Shown: positions 40,431 to 59,260 of the stretch, piece after piece
Position numbering within the stretch: the first letter of the stretch is position 1
Layout of the letters: every line of letters begins with the position of its first letter
Assembly: GCA_963718895.1 (NCBI GenBank)
Contig: CAVRAG010000007.1
Location: forward strand, 704,001 to 768,000
Direction of reading: 5' to 3'
Length of the DNA: 64,000 nt
Source of the DNA: an uncultured Nitrososphaerota archaeon
GTDB lineage: Archaea > Thermoproteota > Nitrososphaeria > Nitrososphaerales > Gagatemarchaeaceae
Notes under the pieces: generated by a model
Database searches by the model: none
What the model was told of the DNA's origin: nothing
What the model saw: the letters and a program-made list of their open reading frames with translations, nothing else
Position numbers and translations under genes: made by a program

Positions 40431-40563
40431 TGGCCCCTAAAACCGTCATTGCAATGAGGAGACGCCCAAAGACGCGCAAATGACTCTCCCGCCCTAAACG
40501 AGAGACGATACACAGGAATTACCTGCGCCGCAAGACATGACCACGAGCGCAGGGGTCCTTCAC
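40431..40563 (+). ncRNA. Dispersed non-coding element, copy A (3' truncated)
   Basis: 39/41 nt match to copy D (40471-40511 vs 59077-59117), then CACAGGAATTACCTG...ACGAGCGCA shared with B/C; TGGCCCCTAAAA box. Confidence 0.55.
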
Positions 40564-40813
40564 TGAACCCACCCCGACACGCCTGTTGCGCTGGGAGCAA
40601 GCCTCTGACCAAACCAAGATGGAATCTTGAGGCGCAATTCAACCGCAAACCGGCGGAGCATCGTGGGACGATCTCTCCACCCTGGTTTGTCAGCGATGAC
40701 GAGAGGTCCCTTGAGCCGGGATACCCACTATCTTCTCTCCGAGTTTGGTCAGGACGAGCACGCCTAGCTCATCATTCGGCTCAGCGCGGTCCTCCGCCGA
40801 ATCGCGCTTTGGC

Positions 40814-41671
40814 TCAGGTCCTCTGCCCGGAAGGAGGCCGCCAGTCGCTGCATCTGGGGCATATCAGGAAGAACTTCGATCCGCTGACGATCTTGAACGA
40901 TGGAGCGCTGCATGTCGGGCATTGGGCCTCTTCCTCCTTCCAGTGCACCTCGAGGCCACGTTCCTTGAGCCAGTCAACGACCGAGAGCACCGTTGGGTCG
41001 GTCAGCATCTCGACGGGTAAGTCTTCGTAGTACTCGACCGCCAGCTTCAGCCTCTCGAACTGGCTCGGAGAGATTTGCCCGTTGAGCGAGTGCCTTGCGA
41101 AGACCGCCGTAAGGCGCTTCCGCTCATCCCCGTCCGCGAGCTTCGTGTCGACGCCGGAGAGCAGGACAATGCACACGAGCGAAACAGCGGCGATGAGCCC
41201 GTAAGGGCTCTGGAGAAACAGTATTGGCAGTCCGACGTAAGGGATGGTGACGGCCGGCACGCCCAGGACGCTGGTCGAGTCTGTGACGAACGGGTCCGGG
41301 GACAGGTTGTTGTCTCCCTTCGTATCGTAGTACGTCACCCCGTTGGCCTCCTGACCGACCCCCACGACCCTGTGGATCACGACAGGCTTCAGGAACGAGT
41401 CGAGGGCCGGAATCCCAGATGAACCCTGAACGAAGACGATGATGCTGCCGTTCGCGATCTGTCCCCGCGGGGCGGTGAAGAAGATGAGCTCACCGTTCTG
41501 GAGCTTGGGGTACATGCTGTTCCCCTGTACGATAGCGACCGGATAGGTGGTCGTCCCGGCGATGAACGGAAGTGCGGCGAGAGTGACAAGTAGGCCGAGA
41601 CTGAGCATGAACAGCAAGCGCCGTTTGTCGAATTTCATTTCCAAAGTCTCCGTTGTGACCATTCTTCTCAT
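40814..41671 (-). CDS. Signal peptidase I (S26, SipW/Sec11-type) with C-terminal zinc-ribbon domain
   Basis: GNSMYP, IHRVV, TKGDNN..PD; C-terminal CPTC/CPRC. Confidence 0.9.
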   Translation of the reverse strand: MRRMVTTETLEMKFDKRRLLFMLSLGLLVTLAALPFIAGTTTYPVAIVQGNSMYPKLQNGELIFFTAPRGQIANGSIIVFVQGSSGIPALDSFLKPVVIHRVVGVGQEANGVTYYDTKGDNNLSPDPFVTDSTSVLGVPAVTIPYVGLPILFLQSPYGLIAAVSLVCIVLLSGVDTKLADGDERKRLTAVFARHSLNGQISPSQFERLKLAVEYYEDLPVEMLTDPTVLSVVDWLKERGLEVHWKEEEAQCPTCSAPSFKIVSGSKFFLICPRCSDWRPPSGQRT

Positions 41672-43617
41672 GCCCTGTATGTATAAGCCACCTCGAACAG
41701 CGTGGGTTTCGGTGAGCCCCAGAAGATTGTTAGAGCTGCCGACGCTGGCCCGGTTATCACGACCTCGATGTAGCCCGAGGCCGGTACTGTCCCAGCAGAA
41801 GAGGACACAGAGAGAGGCTGGTAGAGCGCGGTCGTCGCCGCGGGCGAATTACTGGCCATCGTGGACTGGACTGTGCCGGCCGAGTCCGTCGTGTAGTACG
41901 AGACTGTGACCGTCTGGGGTGCTGGCATTATCGCGTCGCACAGGGCGCCCCAGTACGTCGTAGACTTCCCGAATGCGCACGATGAAGAGGACAAAGAGGA
42001 GGTCGTTGCAACGTACTCTACAGCGTTCGAATAGCCTACTCCCGCCTCGGTGGCGACGAGAGTGGCCTTTGTTACTCCGATGGTTCCAGCCGTCTCCGTG
42101 ACCGATGTATGGGTGCCAAAGAGCGAGAAGACGAAGTCCGTCTCCGAGACCGTCGAGACGCTAGAGACCGTCGGCGCGGCTGAGGTGGAACTGCAGGAGG
42201 AGACTGCGGCGTCCGGCAGACCCGAGGCGGGGTCGAAGGGAGTGATAGTGTCCGCGCCGGAGACCGCGATGGCGATTCCCGAAGCAGCGGTCGTGGTCGG
42301 AGTCGACGCGAGTTGGACCGTTATCGTGTCCGACGAGAGGGCGGAGGACGCTATCCCGTACCACTCGACCTCCGTGCTCTCCTGCGCGCCGGTGCACACC
42401 GTGTAGGAGTGCCGAGCAGACGACTGCCACGTTATCGCGCTGGCAGAGTCTGATATCGAGGAGACCGCGACGGAGGAACCAGAGTGGTAGGTGACTATCG
42501 AGAGCACGACCACATCGTTGGCATCAGTCGTCGTTAACGACGAAAGGGCGAACGAGGTCCCAGAGGACCAAGTCCCTTCTGCGCTTCCATCCACCGCTGG
42601 CGCGGGCATGTCTGCGAAGAGCTGCAACGACAGTGAGGATGCGGGAATAGACTTTGCTGAAGCGAATTGAGGCGACCAGAGATACATGCTCTCCCCCGCG
42701 GGGAGGGTGAAGCTGGCACTTGAGACGACCGCGTCGCAGATGTCGGCCCAATAGGTCGTTGTCTTCCCGAAGGTGCACGTGATGCCGGACTCGACCGTTG
42801 AGACGACGCTGTACTCCACGGCGAGGGAGTATCCCCTTCCCGCTACGGTACTCAGAAGCGTCGCGGCCGTGGCGCCGATGTTCCCGGCGCTCTCCGTCTT
42901 CGACGTGTAACCGCCGAAGAACGCGATTACGAAGTCGTTGGCGTTCGCGGTCGAGATGGTGTCGCTCGGGTCCGCTGCGGTGGACGAGCAGTCGTTCCCT
43001 ATTGTGCCCCCGTTGGCGGAGGTGTCGATCGGGCTGGATGTGGCTGCGCCGGAGATTGCGACGGCCTCGGCCGAGGCAGCGGTGGGAGTCGCGCTGAGTG
43101 TGATGGTTATCGTATCCGAGGAGAGGACGCCGGAGGCTACACCGTACCACTGAATGTCAGTGGTCTCTTGTGTAGAACTGCAGTCAGTGTACTCGGTCAG
43201 GAAACTGGTCCGCCAGCTTACCGCACCGGCGGTGTCTGTGACGGAGGAGACCGTTATCTCGCTGGCCGACTTGTATGTTACCACGTTGAGGAGAATCACG
43301 TCCGACGTATGGGCCGTGGTCACCGACGTTATGGTAAACGAGGTAGCCGAGGACCACGTACCCGTCCAGTTACCGTCCGAGGAGAGCACTGAGGTCCTGG
43401 TGGGCTCGGTGGTCTGAGTGTCGACGGTGAGGCAGGGCAAGGTGCACCCGGCCACAGGTGCGTTGACGTTCTCGTAGTAAGGGTTCAGAAAGGTGCCTGC
43501 GAAGTCGGCGCCGGTGCTCTTCAGAATCGTCACGTTGGCCGCGGCAGCGACAATGAGCATCGTTGTGGCTGCGCCAGACAGAAGGAGCAGCCGCCACTTC
43601 AGGTTCTGCGAACCCAA
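41668..43617 (-). CDS. Secreted S/T-rich protein with two internal Cys-containing repeats (candidate fibre adhesin/minor subunit)
   Basis: Signal peptide; two repeats, each starting GTWSS.TSF and ending CxFGKxTTYW..xCDA. Confidence 0.8.
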   Translation of the reverse strand: MGSQNLKWRLLLLSGAATTMLIVAAAANVTILKSTGADFAGTFLNPYYENVNAPVAGCTLPCLTVDTQTTEPTRTSVLSSDGNWTGTWSSATSFTITSVTTAHTSDVILLNVVTYKSASEITVSSVTDTAGAVSWRTSFLTEYTDCSSTQETTDIQWYGVASGVLSSDTITITLSATPTAASAEAVAISGAATSSPIDTSANGGTIGNDCSSTAADPSDTISTANANDFVIAFFGGYTSKTESAGNIGATAATLLSTVAGRGYSLAVEYSVVSTVESGITCTFGKTTTYWADICDAVVSSASFTLPAGESMYLWSPQFASAKSIPASSLSLQLFADMPAPAVDGSAEGTWSSGTSFALSSLTTTDANDVVVLSIVTYHSGSSVAVSSISDSASAITWQSSARHSYTVCTGAQESTEVEWYGIASSALSSDTITVQLASTPTTTAASGIAIAVSGADTITPFDPASGLPDAAVSSCSSTSAAPTVSSVSTVSETDFVFSLFGTHTSVTETAGTIGVTKATLVATEAGVGYSNAVEYVATTSSLSSSSCAFGKSTTYWGALCDAIMPAPQTVTVSYYTTDSAGTVQSTMASNSPAATTALYQPLSVSSSAGTVPASGYIEVVITGPASAALTIFWGSPKPTLFEVAYTYRA

Positions 43618-43651
43618 CCGATCACCCCTGGGCTCACTTCCCGGCCCGCTC

Positions 43652-44164
43652 CTAGGCGACCGTTATCTGGACCGCCGCGGGGGCCGTCCACGTCACTGCG
43701 CCCGTGTCCCAGAGGACGGTCATCGTCTGTCCGTTCACGATTGAAGCCGGGCTCGTGAACTGGAAGGTGTAGAGGGTGCTCGTGACGCCGCTGACGGCGG
43801 TGCTCGTGACTGTGATTGTGTAGAGGTAGCTCGTCGCCGCGCCCGTCTGGATCGTTATCGTCCAGGCCACTTCCCAGTCGCCCGCCACGAGAGCGTTCAC
43901 GTACGTCGGGGCCAGGTTAGCCCACGCAAGCCCGCTGACCGATGCAGATTGGGGGGCCTCGACGACGTTGTAGCTGATCGCGGAGGCGAGGAAGTAGCCG
44001 TTGTCGACGACGTACTCTCCTTGGTATCCCACGTTGTTGCTGGTGTTGATGGTCACCGATGCCGCGTAAGCGCCTATGGAGCCGACCATGATGAGTGAGA
44101 GAACGAAGAGGTAGACCAGCCTGACGCTCCTGTGCATGAAAGGTACCTTGATGAATCTCGTCAT
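43652..44164 (-). CDS. Secreted 170-aa protein, candidate fibre subunit (paralogue 2)
   Basis: Signal peptide ending GSIGAYA; shares long identical blocks with 44189..44701. Confidence 0.85.
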   Translation of the reverse strand: MTRFIKVPFMHRSVRLVYLFVLSLIMVGSIGAYAASVTINTSNNVGYQGEYVVDNGYFLASAISYNVVEAPQSASVSGLAWANLAPTYVNALVAGDWEVAWTITIQTGAATSYLYTITVTSTAVSGVTSTLYTFQFTSPASIVNGQTMTVLWDTGAVTWTAPAAVQITVA

Positions 44165-44188
44165 CTCCCCAAGACCTCCTCCAAGCTC

Positions 44189-44701
44189 CTAGGCAACCGC
44201 CACTTGAACCGCGGCCGGGGCCGTCCATGTCACAGCTCCCGTGTCCCAGAGAATCGTCATCGTCTGCGTGGGGGTTATCGTCGCGAGGGTCGTGAACTGG
44301 AACTGGTACAACTGAGTGGTCGTTCCAGTGGCTGAAGTGCTGGTCACGGTGATAATGTACGTGTGGCTGGGTGTCGCTCCCGCGTTGAGCGTGATGGTCC
44401 AGAGGACCTCCCAGTCGCCTGGTACAAGGGCGTTCACGTAGGCCGTGCCACTGGGCGCCCATGTCATTGGCTGGGTCGTCAGCGCCTGCGCGCCCTCGAC
44501 GACGTTGTAGGTAATGGCAGAGGCGGTGAAGTAGCCGTTGTCGACGACGTACTCTCCTTGGTATCCCGCGTTGTTGCTAGTGTTGATGGTCACCGATGCC
44601 GCGTAAGCGCCAATCGATCCGATGAGTATGAGCGAAAAGACAGCCACATAGAGCAGCCTTATGCTCCTTCTGACGAAAGGAATCCTTATCATCTTTGCCA
44701 T
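44189..44701 (-). CDS. Secreted 170-aa protein, candidate fibre subunit (paralogue 1)
   Basis: ASVTINTSNNxGYQGEYVVDNGYF...WDTGAVTWTAPAAVQxxVA shared with its neighbour. Confidence 0.85.
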   Translation of the reverse strand: MAKMIRIPFVRRSIRLLYVAVFSLILIGSIGAYAASVTINTSNNAGYQGEYVVDNGYFTASAITYNVVEGAQALTTQPMTWAPSGTAYVNALVPGDWEVLWTITLNAGATPSHTYIITVTSTSATGTTTQLYQFQFTTLATITPTQTMTILWDTGAVTWTAPAAVQVAVA

Positions 44702-44889
44702 GATTCTCTCACTTTCTCCTGATGTTTTTTCTTGTGTTATGAGCAGGGGTTACGATTCCCGTCTGATAACCAGAACAGTTTGGCGGGTGAACCCGATATA
44801 AAGTCGTCTAAAAATATCCCAAAAGTCCACCATGTTATCAATTTCTCTTAACATTTCGTCGTTTGAGCCCGTTCGGTTCGTTAGTCCGC

Positions 44890-45135
44890 ATGGCGTTCAC
44901 TGACCTAACGGACGAGGAGTGGGAGGACGTCAGGGGCCTCATCCGGCCACGAGCCAAGAAAGGCAGACCGAGAGGAGACGAAAGACGAACCCTGAACGCA
45001 ATCCTGTTCGTCCTGCAGGAGAAGATACCCTGGAACTACCTCCCGAGCGAGTACGGCAACGACTCGACCCCCAACAGGAGGTTGAAAGAGTGGGAGGAGG
45101 ACGGGACGTGGGACCGAATAGCGGACGCCCTGGGG
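44890..45135 (+). mobile_element. IS5-family transposase N-terminal (DUF4096) fragment
   Basis: DLTDEEWE..GRPR..R..LNAILFVL...W..LP.EYG..ST...RL.EW...GTW; no DDE domain follows. Confidence 0.8.
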
Positions 45136-45459
45136 CTCGTCGAGGACTCCGACCTCATCGGGGAACCCGGCAGCGGAGACTCGGGTCTCGATTCTGGACT
45201 GTGGGACGTCTCGCAGGACTACCCTGCATCGGGTCGAGGGGAACTCCTCTGTCCGGCTCGACCAAGGATCACCATAGCCCGTGGAGATGCACCCGGAGAG
45301 GCTATCGGCGGCATGACAATCATCAGCTGCACGGAGGCAGACACCTGTCTTCCCATGTTTCACGGACCCGTGGGGGGAACGCGTCAGGAATGCATCCCGG
45401 CGACCTGCTTCTTGTTCGTTGAGGGAGAAGATGGGTTCCCGGGGTGCGCACTCGAAGTT

Positions 45460-45734
45460 CAGCTGGTGAGTTCGACACGCCGCAGGGCTGGACGACCTTC
45501 CCGGCCCTGAACTGGGGTACCGAGGTTCAGGCCCACGGGCCCTCGAATTCGATGAGACCTCAGCTGACAAGCCGGGCCGAGTCCTGGCGCAGCTGGAGAC
45601 AAAGGGGCTTGCGACGGACCCGAGGCATCTTCACAGGATGCACGCACCTGTCCGATGGCTATCCCCTCCTGACCAAGGACCGGAGGCATCTGGACCGGAT
45701 ACCGGACCTCCTCGTCCTCACTCGGCGGACCTAG
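45460..45734 (+). pseudogene. VapC PIN toxin C-terminal remnant
   Basis: GRVLAQLETKG..(fs)IFTGC...GYPLLTKDRRHLDRIPDL matches the PIN C-terminus. Confidence 0.6.
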
Positions 45735-45863
45735 ACTCCGGATGGGGCCTGGCTCGGGGTCTCCCTGTCGACCGTGCCTTCTTTGGGCTCGCCACGCCCC
45801 TTGTTGAGGGCGGCTGACCTAGCAAAGACCGGTCCTCGAGTCTGGACCGAGAGAAGGAAAGGT

Positions 45864-46120
45864 TGGCGGTTAAATTGACTGTCAGCGTGCTTCTACACCC
45901 GATTGCGCGGACATGAGTCTCCTCCTCGAACTGGAGATGAGCACAGGAATTACCTGAGCCGCAAAAACGTGATCGCGAGCGCAAGGGTCTTCCACGGCGA
46001 GGCGGCCAACGGGTCGAAGAGGAAGACATCACGTCCTCTGACTTTCAAGCGAATGCCGTCCCCGTGTATCGGGAGGGCCAACGAGCGAATGTCTCTTGAG
46101 CAGGCGGACGAACAACGAAT
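45864..46120 (+). ncRNA. Dispersed non-coding element, copy B (candidate structured RNA with own promoter)
   Basis: TGGCGGTTAAAT box; stem ACCC-TTGCGC/GCGCAA-GGGT; 103/105 nt identical to copy C. Confidence 0.65.
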
Positions 46121-46369
46121 GGACAGGACCAAGCCTTGTGATTTCGGGGGGCTGAGCGTTTCCAGAAATTCCTGCAAGACTTGCATAGAATAGGACGCTT
46201 ATCCAAGATATGTAACCCAGCGTCCAAGTCCTCTTAGACGGAAATACGGAGCTTTGCAGAGGAGGTTGTGTACTATGTATCACTAACTGGGCGAATATCG
46301 ACCTTGTCGCCCCTATGTGAACGTCCTCGTTATCTACTCTCTTGCGCCGTTGAGGACCGTGGATTGAGG

Positions 46370-46702
46370 ATGACAACGGAAGAAAACCTCCGTGAAGCAA
46401 CGGGACAATCTCCAGAGACCATCATCTGCGCGGGATGCGACGAACCTGTTCAGGAGCTCCTGCAAGAGGATTCCCTGCGTCTGAGGAGGACGAACATGGA
46501 GGAAGTCCTCCCTCCGGTGAGGGCTTTCGAATGCCCCCGATGTGAAGCCATAATCTATTCAGACGAATTCACGTCCGGCAGATTTGTGCCTCCCCAGTTC
46601 AGGCGTCTGATAGTGCCGGTTGCTCGGCCCATGAGCGGGAGCCACTTCTCGCCGCAGACCGAGGTAGCCGTTCTGGGTGCGTCGGAGCCGTCTAGGAGTT
46701 GA
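46370..46702 (+). CDS. Small zinc-ribbon hypothetical protein
   Basis: CAGC...CPRC. Confidence 0.55.
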   Translation: MTTEENLREATGQSPETIICAGCDEPVQELLQEDSLRLRRTNMEEVLPPVRAFECPRCEAIIYSDEFTSGRFVPPQFRRLIVPVARPMSGSHFSPQTEVAVLGASEPSRS

Positions 46703-46742
46703 TGGGAACGAAGAGAATCGGTGCGGTCCGGAAGGACGCCTC

Positions 46743-47390
46743 TTACAGCGTCATTTTGACCATCACCGATGATTCGGTGGCATCGATGGTCGGGATAATC
46801 TTGAAGAGCGTGCGGAAGTCCGTGTCCAGGGCGGTTTTCAGGTAGGCTGTGTAGTGTTGACCAAAATCATGGGTCACAATAAGCGTGACATTGGATCCTT
46901 CCCGCTTGAGCTCTACCTTGATGTCGAGCCCGTACCGGCTCCTCATCTTGAGATATTCGAGGAAGTCGTCCACCCTGACATCCTGGAACCAGAACATCAT
47001 CATGTCCTTCATCAACTGATGCGAGTGCACCCCGGCGAGCTCCTGGAGCCTCTCGGCGTCAACGGCGTTGACCATGTCCTGAAATTGCGCCTTGGGGATC
47101 GTCACGAAGCCAAACCGCTCGGTGACGCTGTCCCAGAGGACGTACTTGTTCAGGACCGATGAGACCAGGGCATTCAGCGCTATACCCTTGTTCGCTGCCA
47201 AGCCCTCGAGCTTCGCCTCCAGCTCTTCCGGGAGCCTGATGGTCCTAAGGACGGTCCTGCTTTTCTTCTGCTCCCGCTTGGCGTCCGGAGAAGAGGTTTC
47301 CAAGTCCTTTAGTTTTTGCACGGGAATCTGTGCCGTATATGTTCCTTTTGACGAAGCTCCCGATTCGACGGTCAGTGAATCCACATTCAT
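46743..47390 (-). CDS. RHH-domain protein with C-terminal V4R-like region
   Basis: RTIRLPEELEAKL..LA..KGI..NALV..VL..Y..W pattern. Confidence 0.7.
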   Translation of the reverse strand: MNVDSLTVESGASSKGTYTAQIPVQKLKDLETSSPDAKREQKKSRTVLRTIRLPEELEAKLEGLAANKGIALNALVSSVLNKYVLWDSVTERFGFVTIPKAQFQDMVNAVDAERLQELAGVHSHQLMKDMMMFWFQDVRVDDFLEYLKMRSRYGLDIKVELKREGSNVTLIVTHDFGQHYTAYLKTALDTDFRTLFKIIPTIDATESSVMVKMTL

Positions 47391-47701
47391 GCGGCGATGG
47401 TCGAGACCTTCGACCTCTCGTTCCATTGAATGAGTCGGACGAGTCCGATTAGGAGGAGGGCGAAGGAGACCATGAGCGCCGCACTGAGGATACCGGATGG
47501 GACCTCCTGACCGACGGTGAGAAGGAGGGCGTCTCCGAAGCCGACCAAGGCGATCAGGGCGAACCCCACGACCATGAACTTGAAGAGTTGCTCCATGACA
47601 TCGCCCTTGAACATCTTGATGACGCTGTCAACGCACACGATTCCCACGACGCCAAGGATTCCGAACCCATAGGCGATGGCGACCTGGGTCGTGTCGAGCA
47701 T
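47387..47701 (-). CDS. Small three-TM membrane protein
   Basis: Hydrophobic ORF, ATGA-coupled to the downstream gene. Confidence 0.7.
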   Translation of the reverse strand: MLDTTQVAIAYGFGILGVVGIVCVDSVIKMFKGDVMEQLFKFMVVGFALIALVGFGDALLLTVGQEVPSGILSAALMVSFALLLIGLVRLIQWNERSKVSTIAA

Positions 47702-47991
47702 GGACCGTGGGAACGAAAGTATCGGGATTTAGGAAGGAGGTACACTAAGTAGTACCTAGGCGACGAAGATGAGTGTTTTGTCCACCTAGGCAACGGGAGC
47801 GACAGCCTCGTGCATGATTAACAGGGCCGTTAGCAGCTTGCCAGGGCTGTTGTTTCATCAACCAGAGGCCTCGGTGGATGGGACTTCGGGGAGGGGACAC
47901 AGAATCTCGCCCGTGTGGCTGGCTCACCAAGAGAAACCTCCAGGAGGTTCACGTCGCTCATGGTCGTGTCTGTGAATCCTGCGGTATCGAG

Positions 47992-48256
47992 TGGCGCTTA
48001 AAAATCGCCTTACAGGCTTCGAGGACACCTGATTGCGCGAAGATGAGTCTCCGGCCTTGAACTGGAGATGAGCACAGGAATTACCTGAGCCGCAAAAACG
48101 TGGTCACGAGCGCAAGGGTCTTCCACGGCGAGGCGGCCAACGGGTCGAAGAGGAAGACATCACGTTCTTTGACATTCCAGCGAACGCCGTCGTGGTGAAA
48201 TCCCGGGAGGACGAACAAGCGCATGTCTGCCTAGACATGCAGACAAACTAGCGAAG
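47992..48256 (+). ncRNA. Dispersed non-coding element, copy C
   Basis: TGGCGCTTAAAA box; TTGCGC/GCGCAA, TCTCCGG/CTGGAGA, CAGG/CCTG and GTCTTCC/GGAAGAC stems. Confidence 0.65.
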
Positions 48257-48654
48257 AAGATCAGTCACAGCACACCGAAATCAGGAACCGCTCGGCAGGG
48301 CATCCTATCTTCTGGTAGGGCGCCTCATGATATCCACCGGCCATCCGATTCGGGAAGTGCCAGCCGACGCCTGAGGCGGATCTTGAGCTGAAGCTTCGCT
48401 TCCAGGCTGTCACGATTCAGCTGGTAGAGGAGCCCCCGGACGACCTGTGGCTATCGCGATGCCAGATTCTCCAGCCTTTGAAGGACAGGGTGCAGCCTTC
48501 CCTTGAGCTTGATCGAGCTCGCTTTCTCCGCACTTTGCTGTCACCTATCGCGGCAAAGACTTGTCAGACTTGAGGAGGACCCGGGTTGCCGACAATCTCC
48601 AAACTGCGCTGGGAGGCAATGTTAAAGACACCAGTTTCTCCACACCCAATCAGA

Positions 48655-49443
48655 ATGATTGTCCCGAACAGGTTCAAGGACACCGTGGTGCTGATTACGG
48701 GTGCGGGGTCAGGGATAGGTCGCGGAATAGCCTCCAGGTTCGCTGCGGAGGGAGCAAGCGTTGTACTCGTGGATATCCGGGAAGAGGCCGCAAACGCCGT
48801 CTTGAGTGAGATACAGTCGCGAGGCGGCATCGGCATGGTCATCAAAGCGAACGCCACGTTGCCGAGCGACGTTAACCGCGCGGTGGAGGCAGTGATTGAA
48901 AGGTTCGGAAGGATAGACGTACTCGTGAACAACGTGGGTCTGTTCGTACTGAAACCAATCATGGAGATGTCAGACGCAGACTGGGAGCCGATGATGGACA
49001 TCAATGCAAAATCCACCTTCCTGTGGTCCAAGACCGCGGCCAAATCGATGAAAGAGGCCAAGCATGGCTGCATTGTCAACATCGCCTCAGGGTCCGGCAA
49101 AGTTGGGGACCCATATTCTGGCGTCTACGTGGCGGCGAAGCACGCCGTCATCGGGCTCACGAAGAACCTTGCGCTGGAGCTGGCACCATTTGGCGTACGG
49201 GTCAACGCTGTATGCCCGGTCGACACAGACACGCCAATGCAGAAGAAGTTCTTGGAACAGCTCGGCGCGAGGGTCGGCAAGTCGCCGGACGAGCTGAGAC
49301 AAGAGACGATGCACAACATACCACTGGGCAGGCTGGCGACCCCAGAAGACATCGCGGGAACGGTTACATTTCTTGCGTCTGACGACGCGAACTACATAAC
49401 GGGACAGTCGATCAACGTCAACGGCGGATGGCTGATGCTCTAG
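48655..49443 (+). CDS. SDR family oxidoreductase
   Basis: TGAGSGIG, LVNNVG, YVAAK, NAVCP. Confidence 0.92.
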   Translation: MIVPNRFKDTVVLITGAGSGIGRGIASRFAAEGASVVLVDIREEAANAVLSEIQSRGGIGMVIKANATLPSDVNRAVEAVIERFGRIDVLVNNVGLFVLKPIMEMSDADWEPMMDINAKSTFLWSKTAAKSMKEAKHGCIVNIASGSGKVGDPYSGVYVAAKHAVIGLTKNLALELAPFGVRVNAVCPVDTDTPMQKKFLEQLGARVGKSPDELRQETMHNIPLGRLATPEDIAGTVTFLASDDANYITGQSINVNGGWLML

Positions 49444-50583
49444 CAGCGGCGCCGGCCAGCGCCGAGGTCAGCCGCTCGATGATGACTGAGACGTCCACCT
49501 CACTGAGACACTGCGGGTTGATGAAGATCGCTCTTCCGATAGAGTAGAGTTTGATGGGCGGGTCGCCGCTCTCGAGTACTCGAACTAGCTCCTCGACGGG
49601 GACGGAATACGGATCCTGTTCGACCTTGATTCGGGGGATGGTCAGCGGTCTTATCGTGTCTTCCGGGCCCGGCATTACCCTCTTCACGTTCAGGTGCGGC
49701 AGCTTTGACAGGCCGTCCACGAGAGAGTCGATGATCCTCTCGCATCTCTCCAGCCTCTCCTTGCTTCTCGCAGGATAGGTTCTCAGGGCGACGATCAGGG
49801 CCGCGATGTCCTCCTTGCTCGTCTTCATCGGCCGCCCAAGGAAATACGTGCGTTGCCCGTTGACGGTCGCGGAGTAGTACGGTCCAAGAGAGAAGCACGC
49901 GTCCACCAGGCTCTTCCTGCCGCAGACGAACCCCGTGTCACTCGGACCTCCAATGTCCTTCCCCCCGCTGAATACCACCAGGTCTGAACCCAGCGAGATG
50001 TACCGCCGGAGGTTCTCCGCCGGAGGGAGCTCGGCGGCCGCATCTACTATGACCGGTACGCCGCGAGAGTGCGCAAGTTCGATGACCCGGTTCAGCGGCA
50101 CCACGGATTGTTGAGGGCCGAAGTCGATGTACAGGATTGCCGCCGTATCAGTCCCTATCGCCGCTTGCAGCTCTTCCTCGGTCGTTCCTTGGGGACTTCC
50201 CACATAGACTGTCCGGCCTCCCGCAATCTTGACGAGCGTGGTGTAGACGCTCCTGTGCGGCGCCTGGACCAAGACTCGCAACGTAGGCCTTCGTTTTCCG
50301 GCAGCATGCTGGCAACCTCGAGGTCCCCCCTGGAGATACAGGCGACGACCGACATCATCAGGCCGGCGGCCGCGCCCGAGACGACGTATGCGGATTCCGC
50401 GCCTGTGATCCCGGCTATGACTTCACCTGCCTTCCTCTGGAGCTCATCCATGAATACGAATGACAGGGCGGCTTCCCTCATCGCCTGCGTCACTTCTGGG
50501 TCGAGCGTGTTGCCACCCAACGACGTCAGAGTTCCGGAGCCGTTGATGACCTTCCTCACTCCCAGCTTCTCGTAGACGTCCAT
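49418..50583 (-). CDS. SelA-like PLP enzyme (DgaE/UPF0425-like), frameshift near 50280
   Basis: VINGSGTLTSLGG, VSGAAAG, VDAAAE, FSGGKDIGGP, GRPMK. Confidence 0.85.
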
Positions 50584-50672
50584 TGTCCTGTCCCGCCGGT
50601 CAACATCGATACTTATGCCTGTTTCGACGGGCGGGCTCCTGCACTTATAATGAGAGCTGTGCGCTCCTCCGC

Positions 50673-51480
50673 ATGGGAATCTCGAAGAAGGTAGCCCTCG
50701 TCACGGGGGCGGCGTCCGGGATTGGTGAAGGAATAGCTCTCCATCTCGCAAGAGAGGGCGCCTCGGTCATAGTGGCAGACGTGGACGAGGTCAAGGGCGA
50801 GAGAGTCGCCGCACGAATCTCGAAGGGGAAGGGCGATGCCGTCTTCATCAGAGTGGATGTCTCCAATCAGGGTGAGGTCAAGGCGGCGCTTGCGAAGTGC
50901 AGGAAGAAGTTCGGCGGCCTCGACATCCTCGTAAACAACGCCGGCATCAACGTGGGCTTGAGCAGCGGTCCGAATCCTACAGGGTGCCCGAAGAGATATG
51001 GATCGTACCATCGATACCAACCTGAAGGGAACGTTCCTCTGCACAAAGTATTCTGTGCCGCTCATGAGGAAGAGGCAAGGCGGGTCGATAATCAACATAT
51101 CTTCGATGCTGGGGCTCTACGCCATCCCAGGGGCGTCCTCTACTGCGCCTCCAAGGGAGGATCATATCGCTCACGCGGGCGACAGCCATGGACTCCGCGA
51201 GGTTCAAGATAAGGGCAAACTGCATCTGCCCTGGTGCGATCAAGACGCCGGCCTTCGGAAGGGCGTTCACCGACCCCACCGAGCTGCGCCGTCTCTTTGC
51301 GATCTATGAGAAAGGGTATCCGGCCAAGCGCATAGGGGAACCAAAGGACATCGCGTCTTTGGTGGCCTATCTGGCGGATGAGGCCTCCTCGTTCATCACT
51401 GGGTCCGTCATAACAATCGACGGCGGCATGCACGCCCAGTACGGCGAAGCGCTGCTGAAGATGAGGATTGACGGGATAAT
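50673..51480 (+). CDS. SDR family oxidoreductase (frameshifted, end approximate)
   Basis: TGAASGIG, NNAG, YCASKG, NCICPG, ITGSVITIDGG across three frames. Confidence 0.85.
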
Positions 51481-52621: not shown

Positions 52622-54530
52622 CTATCCGAATGTGACGGTATTGAAGAGCGGGGAGGTGTCCGCGCCCTGGAGCATCGGGTCTAGGTAGAAGTTCTTGACT
52701 ACGCCTGTCTTCCAGACGAGTGAACCGCTTCCCTGCCAGAGTTTCACGACGGCCACCCACGCGTATGGGGCATCTGCGTTGATCTGCTCTTGCGCCTTGG
52801 TGCAGAGCGCGGCTATCTGGGTCTGGTTCGCGTCCGTGGTGAAGGCGTTCACGCAGGCCTGGACGGTTGGAGTGGAGTAGGCCGCAAAATCTCCATAGAG
52901 TGAGCTGTTGCTGACAAAGGATATCCAGTCATCCGCCGGGGTCAGCGCGTTCAGCGTCCACGTGGGAGCCCCGTTCAAGATGTTAATCTGCCCAATCTCC
53001 TGGGCGTTCTGAACGTTTGTGGTGTAGCTGCCGAAGAGCGAGGTGTACTCGCCGAAGGTCTCAGTGACGATGTTGGTTTGTATCCCTATGTTGGAAAGGT
53101 CCCCCTGGGATCAGCTGCGCCTCATCGGTGCACGAACCGCAGTTCGCAAGTATCCTGATGGCGAGCGTGGGCATTGTCTTTACGTCAGCGGCCGCAAGGT
53201 AGTGCTGCGCCAGCGTCACGTTGTAGGAGTATGGTTGCGCACCACCCAGGTCGTAGAAACTCCCGAAGAGCGGAGCCTCCGGACCGACGAATTGCGACCC
53301 TTGTCCGAGCCAGACCTTCTGGATTATCTGGCTGTAGTTGATCGTGCTGGACTATTGCGAGTCTCACATCTGTGATATTGGTAGGATAGCTCTGCGTATT
53401 CAGGTCGACGAAGTTGACCTGGGCTCCGAGCCCGCTCGTCGCGACGTAGGAGTACTCGTTAGGGTTCGCGTCACAAGGTTCCAGTCCTGCGCCATTATCA
53501 TAGCAACCTGCGCCGTCCCTGTGCTGAGGTCTGTGTATCGTGTGACATCATCGGGCTTGTAGTTTATGACGACGTTCTTGACGTGGCCCGGATCGAACAT
53601 GGGCTGCGCTGCTATCTGCGCTGGTGTGAGGCTGTCCCCCCAGTATGTCGGATTCTGCGCGAAGGTCACGAAATTATTCTCAGACACCTGTGTGACGACG
53701 TACGGGCCTGTACCGGGGATTGGATGCTGGTTGAAAGCCGTGTTGTAGTTTCCTGGTGTACCGAAGCCACCATTGTTGAGTACGTACTGCGCGTCAAAGA
53801 CCTGACTCATCCAGGGCACCAGCAGTCCGAGGAACCACTGGAAGGGTGCTTGCAGGTGGAAGACTATCTGGTTGGGACCGGTAACATAAATCGGCCAATG
53901 GTTGTTCTCCATCACGCTCAGGGCCGCCGACGAGGGCGAGGAGAGTCCTGACTTCGTCAGAGTTGAGAGCGTCGACGAACCGAAGTTCACGCTACTCATG
54001 TTGAAGACATCGTAGGAGTTGAACCAGGAGGAGGCATTCCCGGATACGTAGTAGAGCCCGTAGAGTTCAGCCCATACCTGATATGCGTTGAAGGGGTCAC
54101 CATTGGAGAAGGTCACTCCTTGCCTCAGATTGAGGGTGTAGGTCTGTCCGCCGTCCGAGACGGTCCAGTTGTCGGCCAGGCCAGGCATGTATTGGATACT
54201 ACCAGTCTGGTACTCGGCCGTGAGGTTGACAGCGACTAGCGGCTGGTACACAGTGATTTCCTGCCAGTCAGGATAAGGCGCCAAGTTGACTGTGTCAAGC
54301 GCGTTCAGGTCGCCAGTCGGCCAAATCCAGTCGTCAATGGTGAGCGTCTGTGGCGCAGACGCGCTAGAGCTGCTCGAGGCTCCCTGGGAAGATGAGGAAG
54401 GGGACGAAGATGGACTCGACAGCGAGGCAGCGTAATAGATACCGACCGCGGCTACTACAATTATGACAATGAGGGCCAGTGCAATCATCGCTCGGCCCAC
54501 GGCGATTCGACTTTCGGACCCAGCAATCAA
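52622..54530 (-). CDS. Peptide/nickel ABC substrate-binding protein, family 5 (frameshifted)
   Basis: PGLADNW, LRQGVTFSNGDPFNAY, IPGTGPY, NPTYWG; C-terminus in ORF 52622..52978. Confidence 0.82.
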
Positions 54531-54759
54531 ACGGCCTGGACTTTGGCCATTGTGTCTTAAGTCTTTCGAGAAAGCAGTCTGCGAAGCACTTTCGACAGGG
54601 TCATAATCACGAAATCGGCAGCCAAGAAACCTTGGATGCTCACTTAGTCTAGGCTTGCGGGGACCCAGAGGACCTCAACTTCAGGGTCGTTCCGTTTGGA
54701 GCGGAGACCGGTTCGGGACATCAAATGATGACGCATTGAGGCTCCAGACTCCTCGACGG

Positions 54760-56269
54760 TCAATCACGGGCTGCGGATACGACGGCGATCTTCTCTCCGA
54801 GCTTCGTGAGAACGAGAAGGCTCCCCGACATCTCAGCTATTGCAAAGCTACCATGTACCATCTGCTTCAACCGTTTGTTGGAGTAACCCTGCTGGGAGAG
54901 CCTCTTCCTCGGGACCTTGCCTCCTGAATTGTGGATGAGCTTGGCCGTGTCCCTAGCCCAGGCCGGCAATTTGTCGTAGACCTTCCAGGCCGAATCACCG
55001 TCAGGAACCCCTTCCAGTGAGATTGGAGGTGTTTTCGGACTCCCTACTATTGGGTGATTCTGATTTGGCAGATTTTGCGTCGGGGCGAATAGGAAACTGT
55101 GCTCCGGGAGGCCCACCATGCACCCCACCGGAATGTCAGTACTGGCGTCGTTGAGCTGGACCAGGCACTCTCCCACCTCCAGCTTGCGAAGGTCTGATGC
55201 GAACTTGTCCGCCTCCAACCTGCTCACCATGTAGTTCAGCGCGAGGTCGACGTCCTTGCCGCTGGTCATCGAGTGGCAGACTATGGTGTTCGAGTTGGAG
55301 ATGATGTCCTCGCTGACTTGTGTCGGCCGCGTTGCCATGACGACCAGCCCCATCCCGTACTTCCTCAGCTCGGTGGCGTACCTCTCGAGGATCCCCTCGT
55401 AGTCTCGCCTGGCGGGAGCAATGTGGTGCGCCTCGTCGACCATGAGCACGAACCTGAGCGCCTTGGTCCACCCGAGCCTCTTGCCGCGGGTGATGAGGAG
55501 CTTGCAGAGGACCTGGGAGACCATGTTCCTCGCCTCGTCGGACTCCAGCGGGCCGAGGTTGACGATGCGCAGGCCCGGCGCGAAGAGCTCGGACTCGTCC
55601 AGCGGTGGCGCGTCGGTGTCGAAGACCCGCGCCAGGGAGCCGCTCGCCAGCGGCCTGAGCCGGGAGACCACAGCCTCGTTCCCCTCGAGCCAGCCCTTGA
55701 CCTTGGTCCGGGACTCCTCGCCCTGCGCCCTGAGCTCCGAGAGGACATCGGAGAGCCGGGAGGTGTCGGCCCCGTAGCAAGACTTCAGGGCCTCGCCGAG
55801 GGCGCGCTCCTGGTACGGGGTGAAGGTGATGCCCCTGAAGGAGCTGCCGACGTAGTGGTGCATCAGGGATATGGCGCGCTCGACGTCGTCGTCGCTGTTG
55901 TCGGACCTGCGGGCGAACGGGGAGAGCGTGAGGTTGGTCCCGGGCGTGTAGACGGTCGCGCTCGGGAGAGAGGCTAGTGGTGAATGGGCGAACTCGCCGG
56001 TCCGGTCGAGGACGAGGACCGAGATGCCGTTCATCGCGGTCGAGCTCCCTGGCAATCACCATGCCCGTACCGCTCTTGCCGCTGCCGGTCCTGCCGAAGA
56101 TGCACATGTGGCGGGTGAGGCTGTCGACGGGGATGGTAACCGGGGGTCTCTCCGGCGATTGCCCGCGTTGAAGACCGTAGGTGGATGCGTCTCCTGGCGC
56201 GTCGACGCGACAACCGAGGCGGATCTCACGTCTCCCGGCGGGCGGCGATTGCTGATTCTGAAGGGGCAT
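54760..56269 (-). CDS. HerA/VirB4-like (DUF87) ATPase, cassette copy 3 (1-nt insertion near 56041)
   Basis: HMCIFGRTGSGKS, VLDRTGE, VDEAH, ELRKYG; C-terminal winged-helix-like tail. Confidence 0.88.
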
Positions 56270-56285
56270 GGAGACTGGCTCACTC

Positions 56286-56603
56286 TCAGAGGTTCACGAC
56301 ACCGGGGAAGAAGTAGAGCACGAGGAACGTGAGCCAGAGCAGGCCCGATGCGCATATCGTGACCCAGAAGTATGCCTTGGTGGTCTTGTGGTGGAAGAAG
56401 AGCCCGCCGAGTATCACGCCTGCGACCCCGCCGGCGAGGGCGATGTGCGCGAGGCTGCGCTCGCTTATCCTGTCGAACCCGATTCGGGCGGAAGTCTTGT
56501 CGGCGAGCATGGCGGCTCCGCCGAGTAGGCTCCAGACCAGGAACCACTCACCGAGAAGCCGCTCGGGGATCATGGAAGCGAGGTTGACGGGGAGCATTGC
56601 CAT
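56286..56603 (-). CDS. DUF1294 membrane protein, copy 3 (intact)
   Basis: ADKTSA..DRISE..LA.IAL.GG..G...FHHKTTK..FW. Confidence 0.88.
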   Translation of the reverse strand: MAMLPVNLASMIPERLLGEWFLVWSLLGGAAMLADKTSARIGFDRISERSLAHIALAGGVAGVILGGLFFHHKTTKAYFWVTICASGLLWLTFLVLYFFPGVVNL

Positions 56604-56607
56604 CGCC

Positions 56608-56811
56608 CTAGGCGGTCTTGGGGACCGGGATGCCGCCTTCGTGCATCTCTATCCGGCACTCGGGACAGACGAGCTTCTTGAATAAGCGCCCCACCTTCTT
56701 CTTAGGGCAGGTGTCGCAGTAGAGCTTCCGGCAGCTAGGACACTGCCAAGCGATCCTCCCGCGAAACCCGCCGACCTCCTTGTTGCACTGGATGCAGAAT
56801 CCTCGGACTAA
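56608..56811 (-). CDS. Small multi-CxxC zinc-finger protein, copy 3 (start codon reads TTA, so missing from the ORF track)
   Basis: VRGFCIQCNKEVGGFRGRIAWQCPSCRKLYCDTCPKKKVGRLFKKLVCPECRIEMHEGG; same length and promoter box as copy 2. Confidence 0.8.
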   Translation of the reverse strand, partial: LVRGFCIQCNKEVGGFRGRIAWQCPSCRKLYCDTCPKKKVGRLFKKLVCPECRIEMHEGGIPVPKTA

Positions 56812-56862
56812 AGTGCCCTATGATCAGGAACAAAGATTTAACGACCAAGGACACCTTCGAGA

Positions 56863-58921
56863 TTACGCTTGAGAAGAACTTGCAACTCCCTTTTCGACAA
56901 CACTCAGGGGAGGAAAGGCTCTACTCAAGAGGGGTCCTATTGACTTGTCCAAGGTTCGGGGGTTGGTTTCAAGGAATTTGGTGATGAATGCATGAGCAAT
57001 CAACGGCTTCTTTTCAACACCCTCCCTTCCCTTTATGTACTCGGAAACATCCTTGTATAGGGAACTGTCGAGTTTTTGGATAAAATCCTCCAAATTCTTG
57101 GAGAAGAAGAACACTTGATTGGTCAAATCGTCTATTCCATCATTTCTTACAATGGAGTAGGATTCGCCATCGTCAGAGTACTTGGCAGCGAGCTTTTCTT
57201 AGCGTGTTATCATCATGGTTGTCTCCATCGGCCAAAATCGTAAATGGAATGCCAATGTTGTTTAGAACCCGAGAGTACTTCCCGAAGTTGCCGTTGCTTC
57301 CTACATCTACTATGATGTTCTCTCTCTTGTCAATCTCCATGTCATAGTGCCTCGCCGCAATGTCCAGGAATTCCCGATCGGCCTCTCCCTCGCACATGAC
57401 TATCCTGTTCGCGAAGAATACTCTTGTGTCGATTTGGTATGATAGCTTGTACCGATCCTCGTCTTCAAAATGGAGAGCAGCATTCAGTTGGGTAGCGATA
57501 CTCTTCGCACCGGTTCTTCTAACGTAGAAGAGATTCGCGTTGAAGTCGAATATCAGATTGTGAACCAACTTGGGAGAGTGCGTTGCCACAATAATCTGGC
57601 TCTTCGTTGCAACTAACTTATCCATTAGAGCCTTCATCTGTGGAGGATGGAGATTGACAGCGGGCTCGTCCAGCAATATCACAGAATCTTCTACCCCGAT
57701 CGCCGCGGCCAAGAGAAAAAGCGATTCTGCCAAACCTGCTCCAACACGGTCCAGCTCGAATTGCTTCGAATTCGTTGAATCAGTTACAATGATGTATGTG
57801 TGGTGTGGAACCTGAGGTATGTTTCGTTGTTGAAAGTTTTCTTGACCGAGACTCACGTATCTGGGCAGTACATCGAAACTCAAGGAAGGGAATAGATCCT
57901 GGAAAGATTCCCTTATTGCGCGAAATCTCTTCCTCTGCTCAAGAATGTTGGACTCTTTCAGGCTAAACAGAAACTGGCCAAGATTCCACCCGTCAGCTTC
58001 GAGTCGATTTGTGTACTGTAGAGGTTCGTCTGCCGAGGCTGCCTGAGTGGCAACTGGTGTTTGGGCCACATGGTCAGCTTCGACTGTTGCCTTGCCGAAT
58101 ATCGTGCCTCCGCTTGTGAATATTATCTTGTTCCGCAGAATTGAACCGAGAATTGAAGAGAACGTAATCTGGGAGTTCTGACTTGGCGGAAATCCAGCTG
58201 AAATCAAGACTTGCTGGAACATCCTTCGATGATCCTCCGAGGCATTTGTCAAATATTGATCCTGAATGTCTTGGATTGTAAAGTAGGTCGAATCCTCGAC
58301 AAAGACTTTGTGTGAAGCGGCTTGGGGATCTGCGGACAGACTGATGCCATCCAGGAGACCTGCAAGATTGCTTTCGGGTTGCTTACCTTTGAACCCATTC
58401 TGCATCGAATCTCGAACATCATCCACCACATAGATCGTCCCCGTCCCATTGGGAGCGTGGAATCGTACGCCTAAGTCTATCAGTTCGAGTTCAAACACAT
58501 TATCCCGAGTAGTTGGAAAGTAGCCCAAGGGCCAACCCAGTGTGAGCCGAGCCCTTCTGCAAAGCTCGACGAGACGGTCGAAATTCTTGTAGTCGTAAAC
58601 ATAGGTCCTTTCCCCTGCGGCATCTCTTACTCGATAGACTCTGAGGAAGTCGAGCAGAGTCTTGGCCTCACTATTTGAGAACACCAACTCGGCTGAGAGC
58701 ACTGGAGGCTTGTTCGAGAATACTTCGTCCTCTGACGGCCTCTTGGAGGACGGAGGGAGGCTCTCCGCGAAGAGACGGACTATTCGGAGGAGATTTGACT
58801 TCCCGGAGTTGTTTGGTCCGACAATCACGTTTGACTTGCTAAGCGAGAGGCGTGTGGGCGGCTGCGAGTCGCCATCATACGAGTAAAGGCCTTGCACGGT
58901 CAATTCCTTGAGCTCCACCAT
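56863..58921 (-). CDS. OLD-family ATP-dependent endonuclease (ABC ATPase + TOPRIM), frameshift near 57180
   Basis: GPNNSGKS, LLDEPAVNLHP, ATHSP, CEGEAD, ADGD; visibly more AT-rich than flanks. Confidence 0.88.
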
Positions 58922-59036
58922 GGATTTTACCTCAATTGATTAGAGAATATCGCTTCTCTTAAGGTCTAGTCGATTAGTCTTGGAATGCATCAAGAAGACA
59001 ATCCCGAACAGGCCGGATGCTTCTAGCAAATGCCAT

Positions 59037-59260
59037 TGGTGCTTAAATGCGCTACCAAACTGAGTTTTCACCCTACGACACGCAAATGACTCTCCCGCCC
59101 TAAACCAGAGACGATACGTGGAGTTGCCTGCGCTGGAAGAACGCAGTCTGAGTGTCGAGGGTTGCTCCGCGGAAGGCGAGCCAACAGGTCCGAAGAGGAA
59201 GACTTCACCACGGATCTTTGACTTTCCAGCGAATGCCGTACCGTTAACCAGAGAGGGCTC
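59037..59260 (+). ncRNA. Dispersed non-coding element, copy D (divergent)
   Basis: TGGTGCTTAAAT box; stem ACCCT-CGACAC/GTGTCG-AGGGT at the same 76-nt spacing as TTGCGC/GCGCAA in B; shared GAAGAGGAAGAC and TGACTTTC.AGCGAATGCCGT. Confidence 0.6.

Follow-up and report, generated by a model that had tools for sequence, protein, structure and literature searches.

The 64,000-nt stretch of DNA analysed here, referred to as the window, covers positions 704,001 to 768,000 (forward strand) of contig CAVRAG010000007.1 in assembly GCA_963718895.1, an uncultured archaeon of the family Gagatemarchaeaceae, and holds four same-strand copies, A to D, of an intergenic repeat. By Pfam scans of flanking reading frames, copies of the repeat lie in a variable island of DUF4258, HicB-like, PIN and Fic toxin-antitoxin genes, which also holds HerA-like ATPases, an OLD/GajA-like nuclease, a Schlafen/AbiO-like helicase with MazG, GmrSD and MmeI-like fragments, and an IS5-like open reading frame (ORF), and in which many genes are truncated. 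An earlier interpretation made without database searches, the sequence-only reading, had taken the repeat for a structured RNA with its own archaeal promoter or, failing that, for a mobile element folding as single-stranded DNA. Comparative analysis shows A to D to be copies of a new family of predicted archaeal RNA genes, strand-specific and pseudoknotted, with a conserved promoter-type box.

The four copies lie where that reading had placed them and align over 100-260 nt. The identities it had quoted were reproduced, at 103 of 105 nt between B and C (best ungapped stretch at 45928, offset 2131) and 39 of 41 nt between A and D (40471, offset 18606), as were the TGGYSSYTAAA boxes and the start of the conserved body 31-33 nt past the TGG in all four. 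This start coincides with position 1 of the covariance model (CM) introduced below, at 40462 (A), 45895 (B), 48025 (C) and 59068 (D). The copy number of four holds for the window but not for the genome. BLAST against the complete 3.1-Mb assembly brings in a fifth, copy E, which shares the strand of the others and lies 7.5 kb past the window, at contig position 775498-775712; it was also placed at contig position 775495-775632, which is window coordinate 71495-71632. The window copies score 92-162 bits with the CM and, beyond the five copies, a CM search of the 3.1-Mb genome returned no match at an expectation value (E-value) of at most 1, so that the copies exceed chance. Homology between them is limited to the element itself and ends at different points, which measured against copy E lie at about 100 nt in A, about 190 nt in D and about 255-260 nt in B and C. 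The copies are 73-88% identical among themselves, indicating that the array is not a recent amplification.

Fold, promoter and distribution of the RNA family

The 5' domain of the RNA spans about 138 nt and consists of a closing helix, P1, around hairpins P2 and P3, followed by hairpin P4. The helices of the sequence-only reading were all recovered, its closing stem as P1, TCTCC/GGAGA as P2, CAGG/CCTG as P3 and TCTTCC/GGAAGA as P4, and in copy D the P1 stem is preserved through compensatory changes (CGACAC/GTGTCG), as it had claimed. The present analysis adds a pseudoknot of 5 bp, in which GCCGC, the strand following P3, pairs with GCGGC in the loop of P4. Of its pairs, the fourth occurs as G-C in 13 sequences, as U-A in 12 and as U-G in 3. 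RNAalifold alone returned P2 and part of another helix and missed P1; P1, P3, P4 and the pseudoknot were set by hand from the helices already proposed and then counted. Single-sequence minimum free energy folding recovers P1 to P4 in B and C.

The CM was built from a structure-free MAFFT alignment of 17 sequences taken from BLASTN-positive genomes, in which 82.9% of the cells are paired, compared with 37-47% when the 3' partners are slid. In this alignment 15 of the 29 pairs change on both sides, and none of 500 shuffles reaches its covariation score. Support grows in the larger alignment of 48 rows, where 82.5% of the cells are paired (33.7-52.7% in the slid controls), 138 cells have changed on both sides and the covariation score is again reached by 0 of 500 shuffles; this alignment leans towards the structure because it was fitted to the model, whereas the MAFFT alignment does not. 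Five matches cut by contig ends were excluded from the alignments. P1, P2 and P4 each contain several pairs that switch among G-C, A-U and U-A. About 100 of the 1294 pair cells hold G-U or U-G, which would become A-C mismatches if read on the opposite strand, and the fold is therefore assigned to the plus strand.

Removal of identical sequences leaves 47 distinct cores, and among these only two columns are invariant, G21 and A46 in copy B numbering, which flank P2; A19, U20, A22 and G45 are at least 90% conserved. The conserved bases form the motifs AUGA and GA, placed symmetrically two positions outside the P2 helix. Such a pattern probably represents the tandem sheared G-A pairs of a k-turn at the three-way junction of P1, P2 and P3, and it suggests that the RNA is probably bound by L7Ae. 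Measured against the definition of a k-turn, tandem sheared G-A pairs and a 3-nt bulge beside a helix, the conserved G and A bases flank P2 symmetrically, and no canonical C-stem is evident. Compared with box C/D RNAs and other k-turn RNAs bound by L7Ae, the molecule shares the AUGA and GA around a helix and a CUGA after P3, but it is three to five times longer, is pseudoknotted and has its would-be guide region base-paired. A box C/D sRNA was accordingly considered and rejected, as the Pyrococcus C/D family snoPyro_CD reaches 16.5 bits (E-value 0.44) against a gathering score of 45, and the segment between the 'C' and 'C'' motifs, where an unpaired guide of ~12 nt would be expected, forms P2, four of whose five pairs have changed on both sides. 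The weak C/D matches arise because AUGA and GA flank one hairpin and CUGA follows the next.

The promoter proposed by the sequence-only reading is borne out as a position-fixed box resembling a BRE/TATA element, with consensus GCTTAAAT, in 36 of the 47 distinct copies. In these 36 cores the pattern [GC][CGT]T[TC]A[AT]A[AT] begins 26-31 nt before model position 1, in 32 of them at -27 or -28, and the 60-nt upstream stretches contain it only one other time. Similar boxes, found by eye, precede tRNA genes of this genome (ACATTAAATACG, TGCTTATTAC and CGCTTATGTT, 30-36 nt before the mature 5' end). Judged from the position of the box, transcription would begin among the opening bases of the conserved body, and the predicted transcript may or may not include the three outermost pairs of P1. 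Several copies, for example at window 47993-48009 and upstream in L031, have the arms of a short inverted repeat, GGCGC..GCGCC, on either side of the TTAAAT box, and in copy A an 8-nt inverted repeat (CCTCATTG/CAATGAGG) runs across box and spacer. On the opposite strand the box of copy A lies about 30 nt upstream of the ATG (40408) of a DUF4258 ORF at 40157-40408. These inverted repeats could be the site of a regulator or mark a bidirectional promoter, the DUF4258 ORF of copy A starting about 30 nt away on the other strand.

In many copies the 5' domain is followed by a 3' domain of about 120 nt, composed of a U-rich linker (consensus CUUUGAYUUUCAGCSAAUG) and two or three hairpins. The RNA is thus larger than the roughly 200 nt first estimated. 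Each hairpin of the 3' domain is preceded by an AGCSAAU-like motif, and those after the first, H5, by a GAACNAGCS-like motif. H5 contains compensatory changes, with four pairs in which 4-8 sequences have changed on both sides; the one or two hairpins that follow it (H6, H7) were recognised by eye and carry no count. Of the window copies (Table 1), B and C have remained intact and D is eroded. Copy A is no more than a 5' stump, with homology that stops near 40563-40568. The seven differences between the cores of B and C break no pair.

Table 1. Parts of the RNA copies in the window and the gene cassette between copies B and C (CM, covariance-model score; pairs are counted out of the 29 of the 5' domain)
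Feature	Position	Strand	Remarks
Copy A, promoter-like box TGGCCCCTAAAA	40431..40442	+	weak variant of the GCTTAAAT box; fails the strict box pattern
Copy A, 5' stump	40462..40568	+	CM 92.4 bits; P1-P2-P3 kept, pseudoknot 3' strand and P4 lost; 18/29 pairs (pseudoknot 1/5, P4 3/6); homology to other copies stops at 40563
Copy B, promoter-like box TGGCGGTTAAAT	45864..45875	+	GGTTAAAT at -27
Copy B, intact 5' domain	45895..46030	+	CM 151.7 bits; 29/29 pairs
Copy B, P1, P2 and P3	P1 45898-45908/45979-45987; P2 45918-22/45933-37; P3 45944-47/45953-56	+	
Copy B, pseudoknot and P4	pseudoknot 45958-62/46002-06; P4 45988-93/46021-26	+	
Copy B, 3' domain	46031..46122	+	U-rich linker CTCTGACTTTCAAGCGAAT; H5 46055-46078; H6 46091-46109; homology to E up to 46114
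B-C cassette	46148..47830	.	144-aa ORF (+), HicB-like ORF (-), 104-aa ORF (-); Pfam and cross-genome identity
Copy C, promoter-like box TGGCGCTTAAAAA	47992..48004	+	GCTTAAAA at -29
Copy C, intact 5' domain	48025..48161	+	CM 162.1 bits, top of all matches; 29/29 pairs
Copy C, P1, P2 and P3	P1 48028-38/48110-18; P2 48048-52/48064-68; P3 48075-78/48084-87	+	
Copy C, pseudoknot and P4	pseudoknot 48089-93/48133-37; P4 48119-24/48152-57	+	
Copy C, 3' domain	48162..48259	+	linker; H5 48186-48212; H6 48225-48244; homology to E up to 48255
Copy D, promoter-like box TGGTGCTTAAAT	59037..59048	+	GCTTAAAT at -27
Copy D, eroded 5' domain	59068..59206	+	CM 95 bits; 23/29 pairs (P3 2/4, P4 4/6)
Copy D, start of 3' domain	59207..59258	+	linker and degenerate H5, then unrelated sequence; homology to E stops at 59239

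Known RNA classes and protein-coding origins were compared with the element. Rfam 15 gives no match in the window at the gathering score, and a permissive scan of copies E and C at an E-value of up to 10 returned chance-level matches only, the best at 16.5-17.3 bits against cut-offs of 36.8-45; ARAGORN finds no tRNA or tmRNA gene in the window. No reading frame is conserved, the lengths of the 47 cores being spread over the three classes modulo 3 as 26, 13 and 8, and column variability has no 3-nt period (range 0.03, reached by 1896 of 2000 shuffles). All the refutation tests that were run favoured the structured-RNA interpretation of the sequence-only reading, which is thus supported at the level of sequence comparison. 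No description of this RNA, or of its regular placement before LAGLIDADG endonuclease genes of two unrelated lineages, was found in Rfam or in searches of the open-access literature without supplements. To our knowledge, ammonia-oxidising archaea have so far yielded few structured RNAs. The present one bears several marks of a folded functional RNA, namely a pseudoknot backed by compensatory change, a probable k-turn, invariant unpaired bases and a conserved promoter.

The RNA occurs sporadically within one archaeal family. By BLASTN, 9 of 97 family genomes carry the element, this one included, and the CM extends this to 26 matches in 12 of the 97 genomes and 5 of 10 genera; none of the 55 genomes of the largest genus carries it. 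In an even sample of the order, 3 of 151 genomes have a match, with a single weak match outside the family. An exact scan of metagenome contigs with a 20-nt motif gave 46 loci, of which 32 hold 35 CM matches, a set biased towards motif-keeping copies and partly repeating the genome loci; viral contigs gave no exact match to the motif.

LAGLIDADG endonuclease genes behind the RNA

Copy E is followed by an ORF of 417 aa with 37 database relatives, none functionally named and one labelled Thaumarchaeota. At copy E and its equivalents elsewhere the complete unit consists of the RNA, a gene for a predicted double-LAGLIDADG endonuclease of about 417 aa and a small partner gene, and it lies upstream of the gene for archaeal elongation factor 2, on that gene's strand. 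The Pfam family LAGLIDADG_3 scores the ORF behind copy E at 19 bits, below its cut-off of 22.5, and the homologue in another genome of the family (G025) at 26.2 bits, above it. The predicted structure of the endonuclease (pLDDT 88.5) is matched by Foldseek to intein endonucleases with an E-value of 4e-6 and further to I-DmoI and WhiA, and VIA gives Z scores of 14.0 and 13.8 with intein endonucleases, 11.4 with I-Tsp061I and 10.5 with I-DmoI. As modelled, the protein has the two acidic-ended helices and the alpha-beta-beta-alpha-beta-beta-alpha saddle that define LAGLIDADG endonucleases. The acidic residues D186 and E281 close the two motifs, the second of which reads LRALWDAEGS, and are invariant in 26 sequences.

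With a profile of this protein family, an endonuclease gene was found directly 3' of the RNA and on the same strand at 14 of 62 matches, comprising five genome and nine metagenome loci, a count to be read in the light of the many contigs that stop too early to tell. The genome loci are copy E, G025, G036, where a 2.6-kb insertion interrupts the gene, G028, with a frameshifted gene, and G037, which retains no more than a fragment. The insertion in G036 (L051:533-3092) holds a Schlafen/AbiO-like helicase gene and duplicates about 35 endonuclease codons. Four arrays contain the gene, those of this genome, G037, L109 and L111, and in each it comes after the 3'-most RNA copy. Behind a further copy, in G006, stands another LAGLIDADG_3 ORF, which has a canonical LAGLIDADG motif and a helix-turn-helix and which profile comparison does not assign to the family. 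No RNA segment or 3' exon was found after the endonuclease ORF.

Homologues of the endonuclease also occur away from the RNA. Five loci with three distinct sequences (L018-L022), all distant homologues, gave no RNA match even with the search filters off, and the CM gave no support to a resemblance noticed by eye in the sequence upstream of L019. In a quick protein tree, RNA-linked proteins stand on both sides of the deepest split, two RNA-less proteins are nested among them, and there are two long branches.

The small partner protein is encoded downstream of the endonuclease in eight loci, among them L065:9143-9427, L055:6090-6704 and L135:143-709, and in two loci it is in frame with the endonuclease without an intervening stop. 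It contains one or two beta3-alpha repeats with the motifs YxVYAS and GRLV and is modelled with a pLDDT of 87.5; no match was found in Pfam or the Atlas, Foldseek reaches a TM score of about 0.2, and the best VIA Z score is 4.2, with no solved relative.

Relationship between RNA and endonuclease

We favour, with moderate confidence, an interpretation in which the RNA serves a homing-endonuclease cassette as its promoter-bearing RNA module, and the copies in the window, which lack the endonuclease gene, stand at borders of cassettes. The U-rich tract after P4 would then serve as a leaky terminator at which most transcripts end, yielding a stable 5'-domain RNA that is probably bound by L7Ae, and the transcripts that read through it would have the 3' domain as the leader of the endonuclease mRNA, an arrangement that would keep the nuclease scarce. 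Solo copies could arise as defence or toxin-antitoxin cassettes insert, or are swapped, by recombination at the RNA sequence, possibly preceded by cuts of the endonuclease, and the endonuclease-less copies would stay upstream of the master copy in the same orientation. In the window, D would be a decaying copy and A the stump left over.

The borders of gene blocks in related genomes bear on this proposal. The 1.7-kb block between B and C is 84% identical to L056:848-2520 in G025 and 77.5% identical to L050:11790-13329 in G027, and the RNA copy lies to its right in G025, to its left in G027 and on both sides here. The DUF4258 block to the left of copy A abuts an RNA copy in G027, so that an extra 5.4 kb lies here between two RNA copies. 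The gene for archaeal elongation factor 2 (aEF-2) is found 3-12 kb downstream on the same strand in seven genome loci and is downstream also in the metagenome locus L127; in G036, L127 and L018 it comes directly after the endonuclease.

A parallel is provided by the phage endonuclease SegB, which belongs to a different nuclease family than LAGLIDADG. According to PMC13096335, SegB activity drives segmental repeats of an adjoining tRNA gene and defence-related genes, and the endonuclease gene is lodged beside small structured RNA genes, as it is here. The phage repeats described there are recent and identical, whereas the copies here are 73-88% identical and the cargo between them differs. The case indicates that arrays like these can be nuclease-driven (PMC13096335), but the copies here are old.

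Several observations weigh against the cassette model. The U-rich tract is the one feature from which its terminator and read-through step is deduced. Copies B, C and G027a (a solo copy of G027) are fully or almost fully folded, with 28-29 of 29 pairs, and have no remnant of an endonuclease, and two unrelated LAGLIDADG lineages behind the RNA suit homing beside a conserved RNA gene at least equally well. The endonuclease is not dependent on the RNA, as the more distant homologues at L018-L022 exist without it, and two of these branch inside RNA-linked clades. The divergence of the copies already described speaks against recent amplification of the array, the metagenome members are a biased sample collected through one exact 20-nt motif with some loci duplicated from the genomes, and the folding-energy z scores are unremarkable, at -1.0 and -1.6 on the plus strand and -0.5 and -0.3 on the minus strand.

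In the main alternative, the RNA would be an independent trans-acting RNA gene, a k-turn ribonucleoprotein with a cellular or defence role, beside which LAGLIDADG genes home and borrow the promoter, the 3' domain being that of the invader. We regard this explanation as possible but tentative. Homing endonucleases that invade beside rRNA and tRNA genes are its precedent. The well-folded solo copies (B and C with 29 of 29 pairs and seven differences that break none, G027a with 28 of 29) fit an RNA that works on its own, the same position is occupied by the two unrelated LAGLIDADG lineages, conservation breakpoints cluster just past P4 in many solo copies, and an RNA-less endonuclease lies directly upstream of aEF-2 in L018. 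The published case of SegB and tRNA genes likewise offers a free-standing endonuclease tied to small RNA genes (PMC13096335). On the other hand, a housekeeping RNA would not be confined to 12 of 97 family genomes and absent from all 55 of the largest genus. Copies lacking both 3' domain and endonuclease are moreover decayed on average, with a mean of 20.0 of 29 pairs kept, compared with 25.4 in solo copies that have the 3' domain and 25.8 in endonuclease-linked ones, and RNA-linked endonucleases that are only 25-26% identical share the same RNA, which looks like long co-inheritance rather than repeated invasion. Should the RNA prove to be an independent gene to which homing endonucleases are drawn, it would mark a hotspot of recombination, and such a hotspot would help to explain the gain and swapping of cassettes in the defence island upstream of aEF-2. 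Whether module or independent gene, the outcome is a defined RNA of about 140-270 nt with predicted start sites.

A closer partnership, in which RNA and LAGLIDADG protein form a complex, is improbable in our judgement. The RNA could inhibit the nuclease in the manner of a type III antitoxin or direct it as a cofactor, and solo copies would then be orphan immunity genes or decoys. The order of RNA gene, U-rich tract and nuclease gene is maintained throughout the protein family, the RNA is pseudoknotted with invariant unpaired bases, many nuclease-less copies lie amid toxin-antitoxin and defence genes, and LAGLIDADG proteins that bind RNA are established in the intron maturases. Set against this, the predicted transcript shows no variable guide-like segment, the variable spacer lying upstream of the predicted start, homologous nucleases occur without the RNA, and known type III toxins are RNases rather than DNA endonucleases. 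In type III loci such as ToxIN the known toxins are RNases and their RNAs are short tandem repeats; the present locus resembles them in having a pseudoknotted RNA gene directly before a nuclease gene, with a terminator-like tract between, in defence islands, a likeness here of gene order alone. The fuller version, in which the small partner joins RNA and LAGLIDADG protein in a ribonucleoprotein, with the RNA as inhibitor or specificity cofactor and endonuclease-less copies as orphan immunity genes or decoys, also strikes us as unlikely. Should the RNA regulate or partner the nuclease, it would break new ground for a family of nucleases in wide use as meganucleases. A ribonucleoprotein, if real, would give the first LAGLIDADG system that depends on an RNA, and archaea would have a selfish or defence module of a new kind.

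A catalytic 5' domain, either a new self-cleaving ribozyme or a degenerate intron core that processes the transcript before the endonuclease mRNA, is very improbable. Its compact pseudoknotted fold with invariant unpaired bases and its place immediately before a LAGLIDADG ORF, a position known from group I introns, invite the comparison, but no ribozyme or intron family of Rfam matches even at an E-value of up to 10, flanking exons are missing, homology does not resume behind the ORF, the RNA carries a promoter of its own, and the order of its helices is presumably at odds with the P3-P7 topology of group I introns. A group I intron in particular was rejected on the absence of an Intron_gpI match at that threshold, of exon homology beyond the RNA or after the ORF, and on the promoter box. 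According to PMC6125680, archaeal group I introns, including those of Thaumarchaeota, carry LAGLIDADG_3 genes and all lie in rRNA genes. These rRNA introns share with the present unit a pseudoknotted RNA followed by a LAGLIDADG_3-type ORF (PMC6125680); the unit differs in having no host gene, no exon homology, no match to intron models and a promoter directly upstream.

That the repeat is instead a DNA element without an RNA, an attC-like recombination site folding as single-stranded DNA or a miniature transposable element, is scarcely credible, since direct-orientation copies at cassette borders and an IS5-like ORF upstream of B are outweighed by the lack of an integrase, transposase, TnpB or reverse transcriptase in the scanned ORFs beside the copies, the lack of terminal inverted repeats or target duplications, the position-fixed promoter-like box, a multi-helix pseudoknotted fold with some 100 G-U cells specific to one strand, and copies that end at differing points. 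The single-stranded DNA alternative of the sequence-only reading thus found no support, and its mobile-element leads (TnpB, IS110, reverse transcriptase, integrase) had no counterpart in the scanned ORFs, where the LAGLIDADG gene recurs instead; the Pfam scans of neighbours covered the longest non-overlapping ORFs rather than every ORF. An integron attC array was likewise rejected, as no integrase domain was found in the scanned ORFs between 34 and 64 kb of the window or over the next 20 kb past its end, and the element is a strand-specific fold of several helices with a promoter box.

The HEARO RNA, or IscB omega-RNA, is a structured RNA with an Rfam family that is linked to an endonuclease ORF. 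It resembles the present element as a structured RNA of a few hundred nucleotides that is multicopy in some genomes, endonuclease-linked in some copies and often solo, but here there is no Rfam match, the neighbour is a LAGLIDADG gene rather than the HNH/RuvC protein IscB, the RNA has its own TATA-type box, the scanned ORFs contain no transposase and no guide segment is evident. An omega-RNA of IscB or TnpB was rejected because the ORFs scanned beside the copies revealed no IscB or TnpB Pfam domain.

Other features of the island

The HerA-like, DUF1294 and zinc-ribbon-like genes form a cluster that is present three times in the window, at 35164-36010, 39293-39963 and 55136-56849, always on the minus strand. 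This divergent operon, which neighbours several RNA copies, was considered as a partner of the RNA and rejected, as its small zinc-ribbon-like protein is carried by 34 of the 97 genomes, often in several copies, and the RNA lies within 1.5 kb at only 3 of 30 loci of the small protein. PADLOC and PHROGs returned generic HerA and OLD/GajA matches only. The OLD/GajA-like ATPase-TOPRIM nuclease (57173-58921, minus strand) lies directly upstream of copy D and is divergent from it. An IS5-family transposase remnant (DUF4096), read as two overlapping ORFs at 44863-45734 on the plus strand, ends 130 nt before the box of copy B, and preceding it at 43648-44701 on the minus strand are two tandem 170-aa paralogues, spaced by 537 nt and 80-83% identical, without a Pfam match.

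Truncated genes of the island include a short-chain dehydrogenase/reductase (SDR) at 50583-51212, a pyridoxal phosphate (PLP) enzyme at 49418-50281 and pieces of HSP70. The essential aEF-2 gene itself reads as two consecutive ORFs (L065:18338-19189 and 19186-19998, corresponding to about 786338-788000 on contig C7, past the window), which together with the truncated genes suggests that the assembly contains frameshift errors, that the genes are truly decaying, or both. A scrambled dnaK-grpE remnant lies just upstream of copy E; it comprises HSP70 fragments (L003:441-1387) and a GrpE ORF with an N-terminus like the C-terminal part of HSP70 (L065:5804-6319). Towards the end of the window, three tandem 654-nt repeats that are 71-75% identical (60116-61343) lie within a 525-aa ORF at 60153-61730 on the plus strand, which encodes a repeat-domain protein without a Pfam match, and are followed on the same strand, at 61995-63951, by genes for an FHA-domain Ser/Thr kinase and then a PP2C phosphatase.

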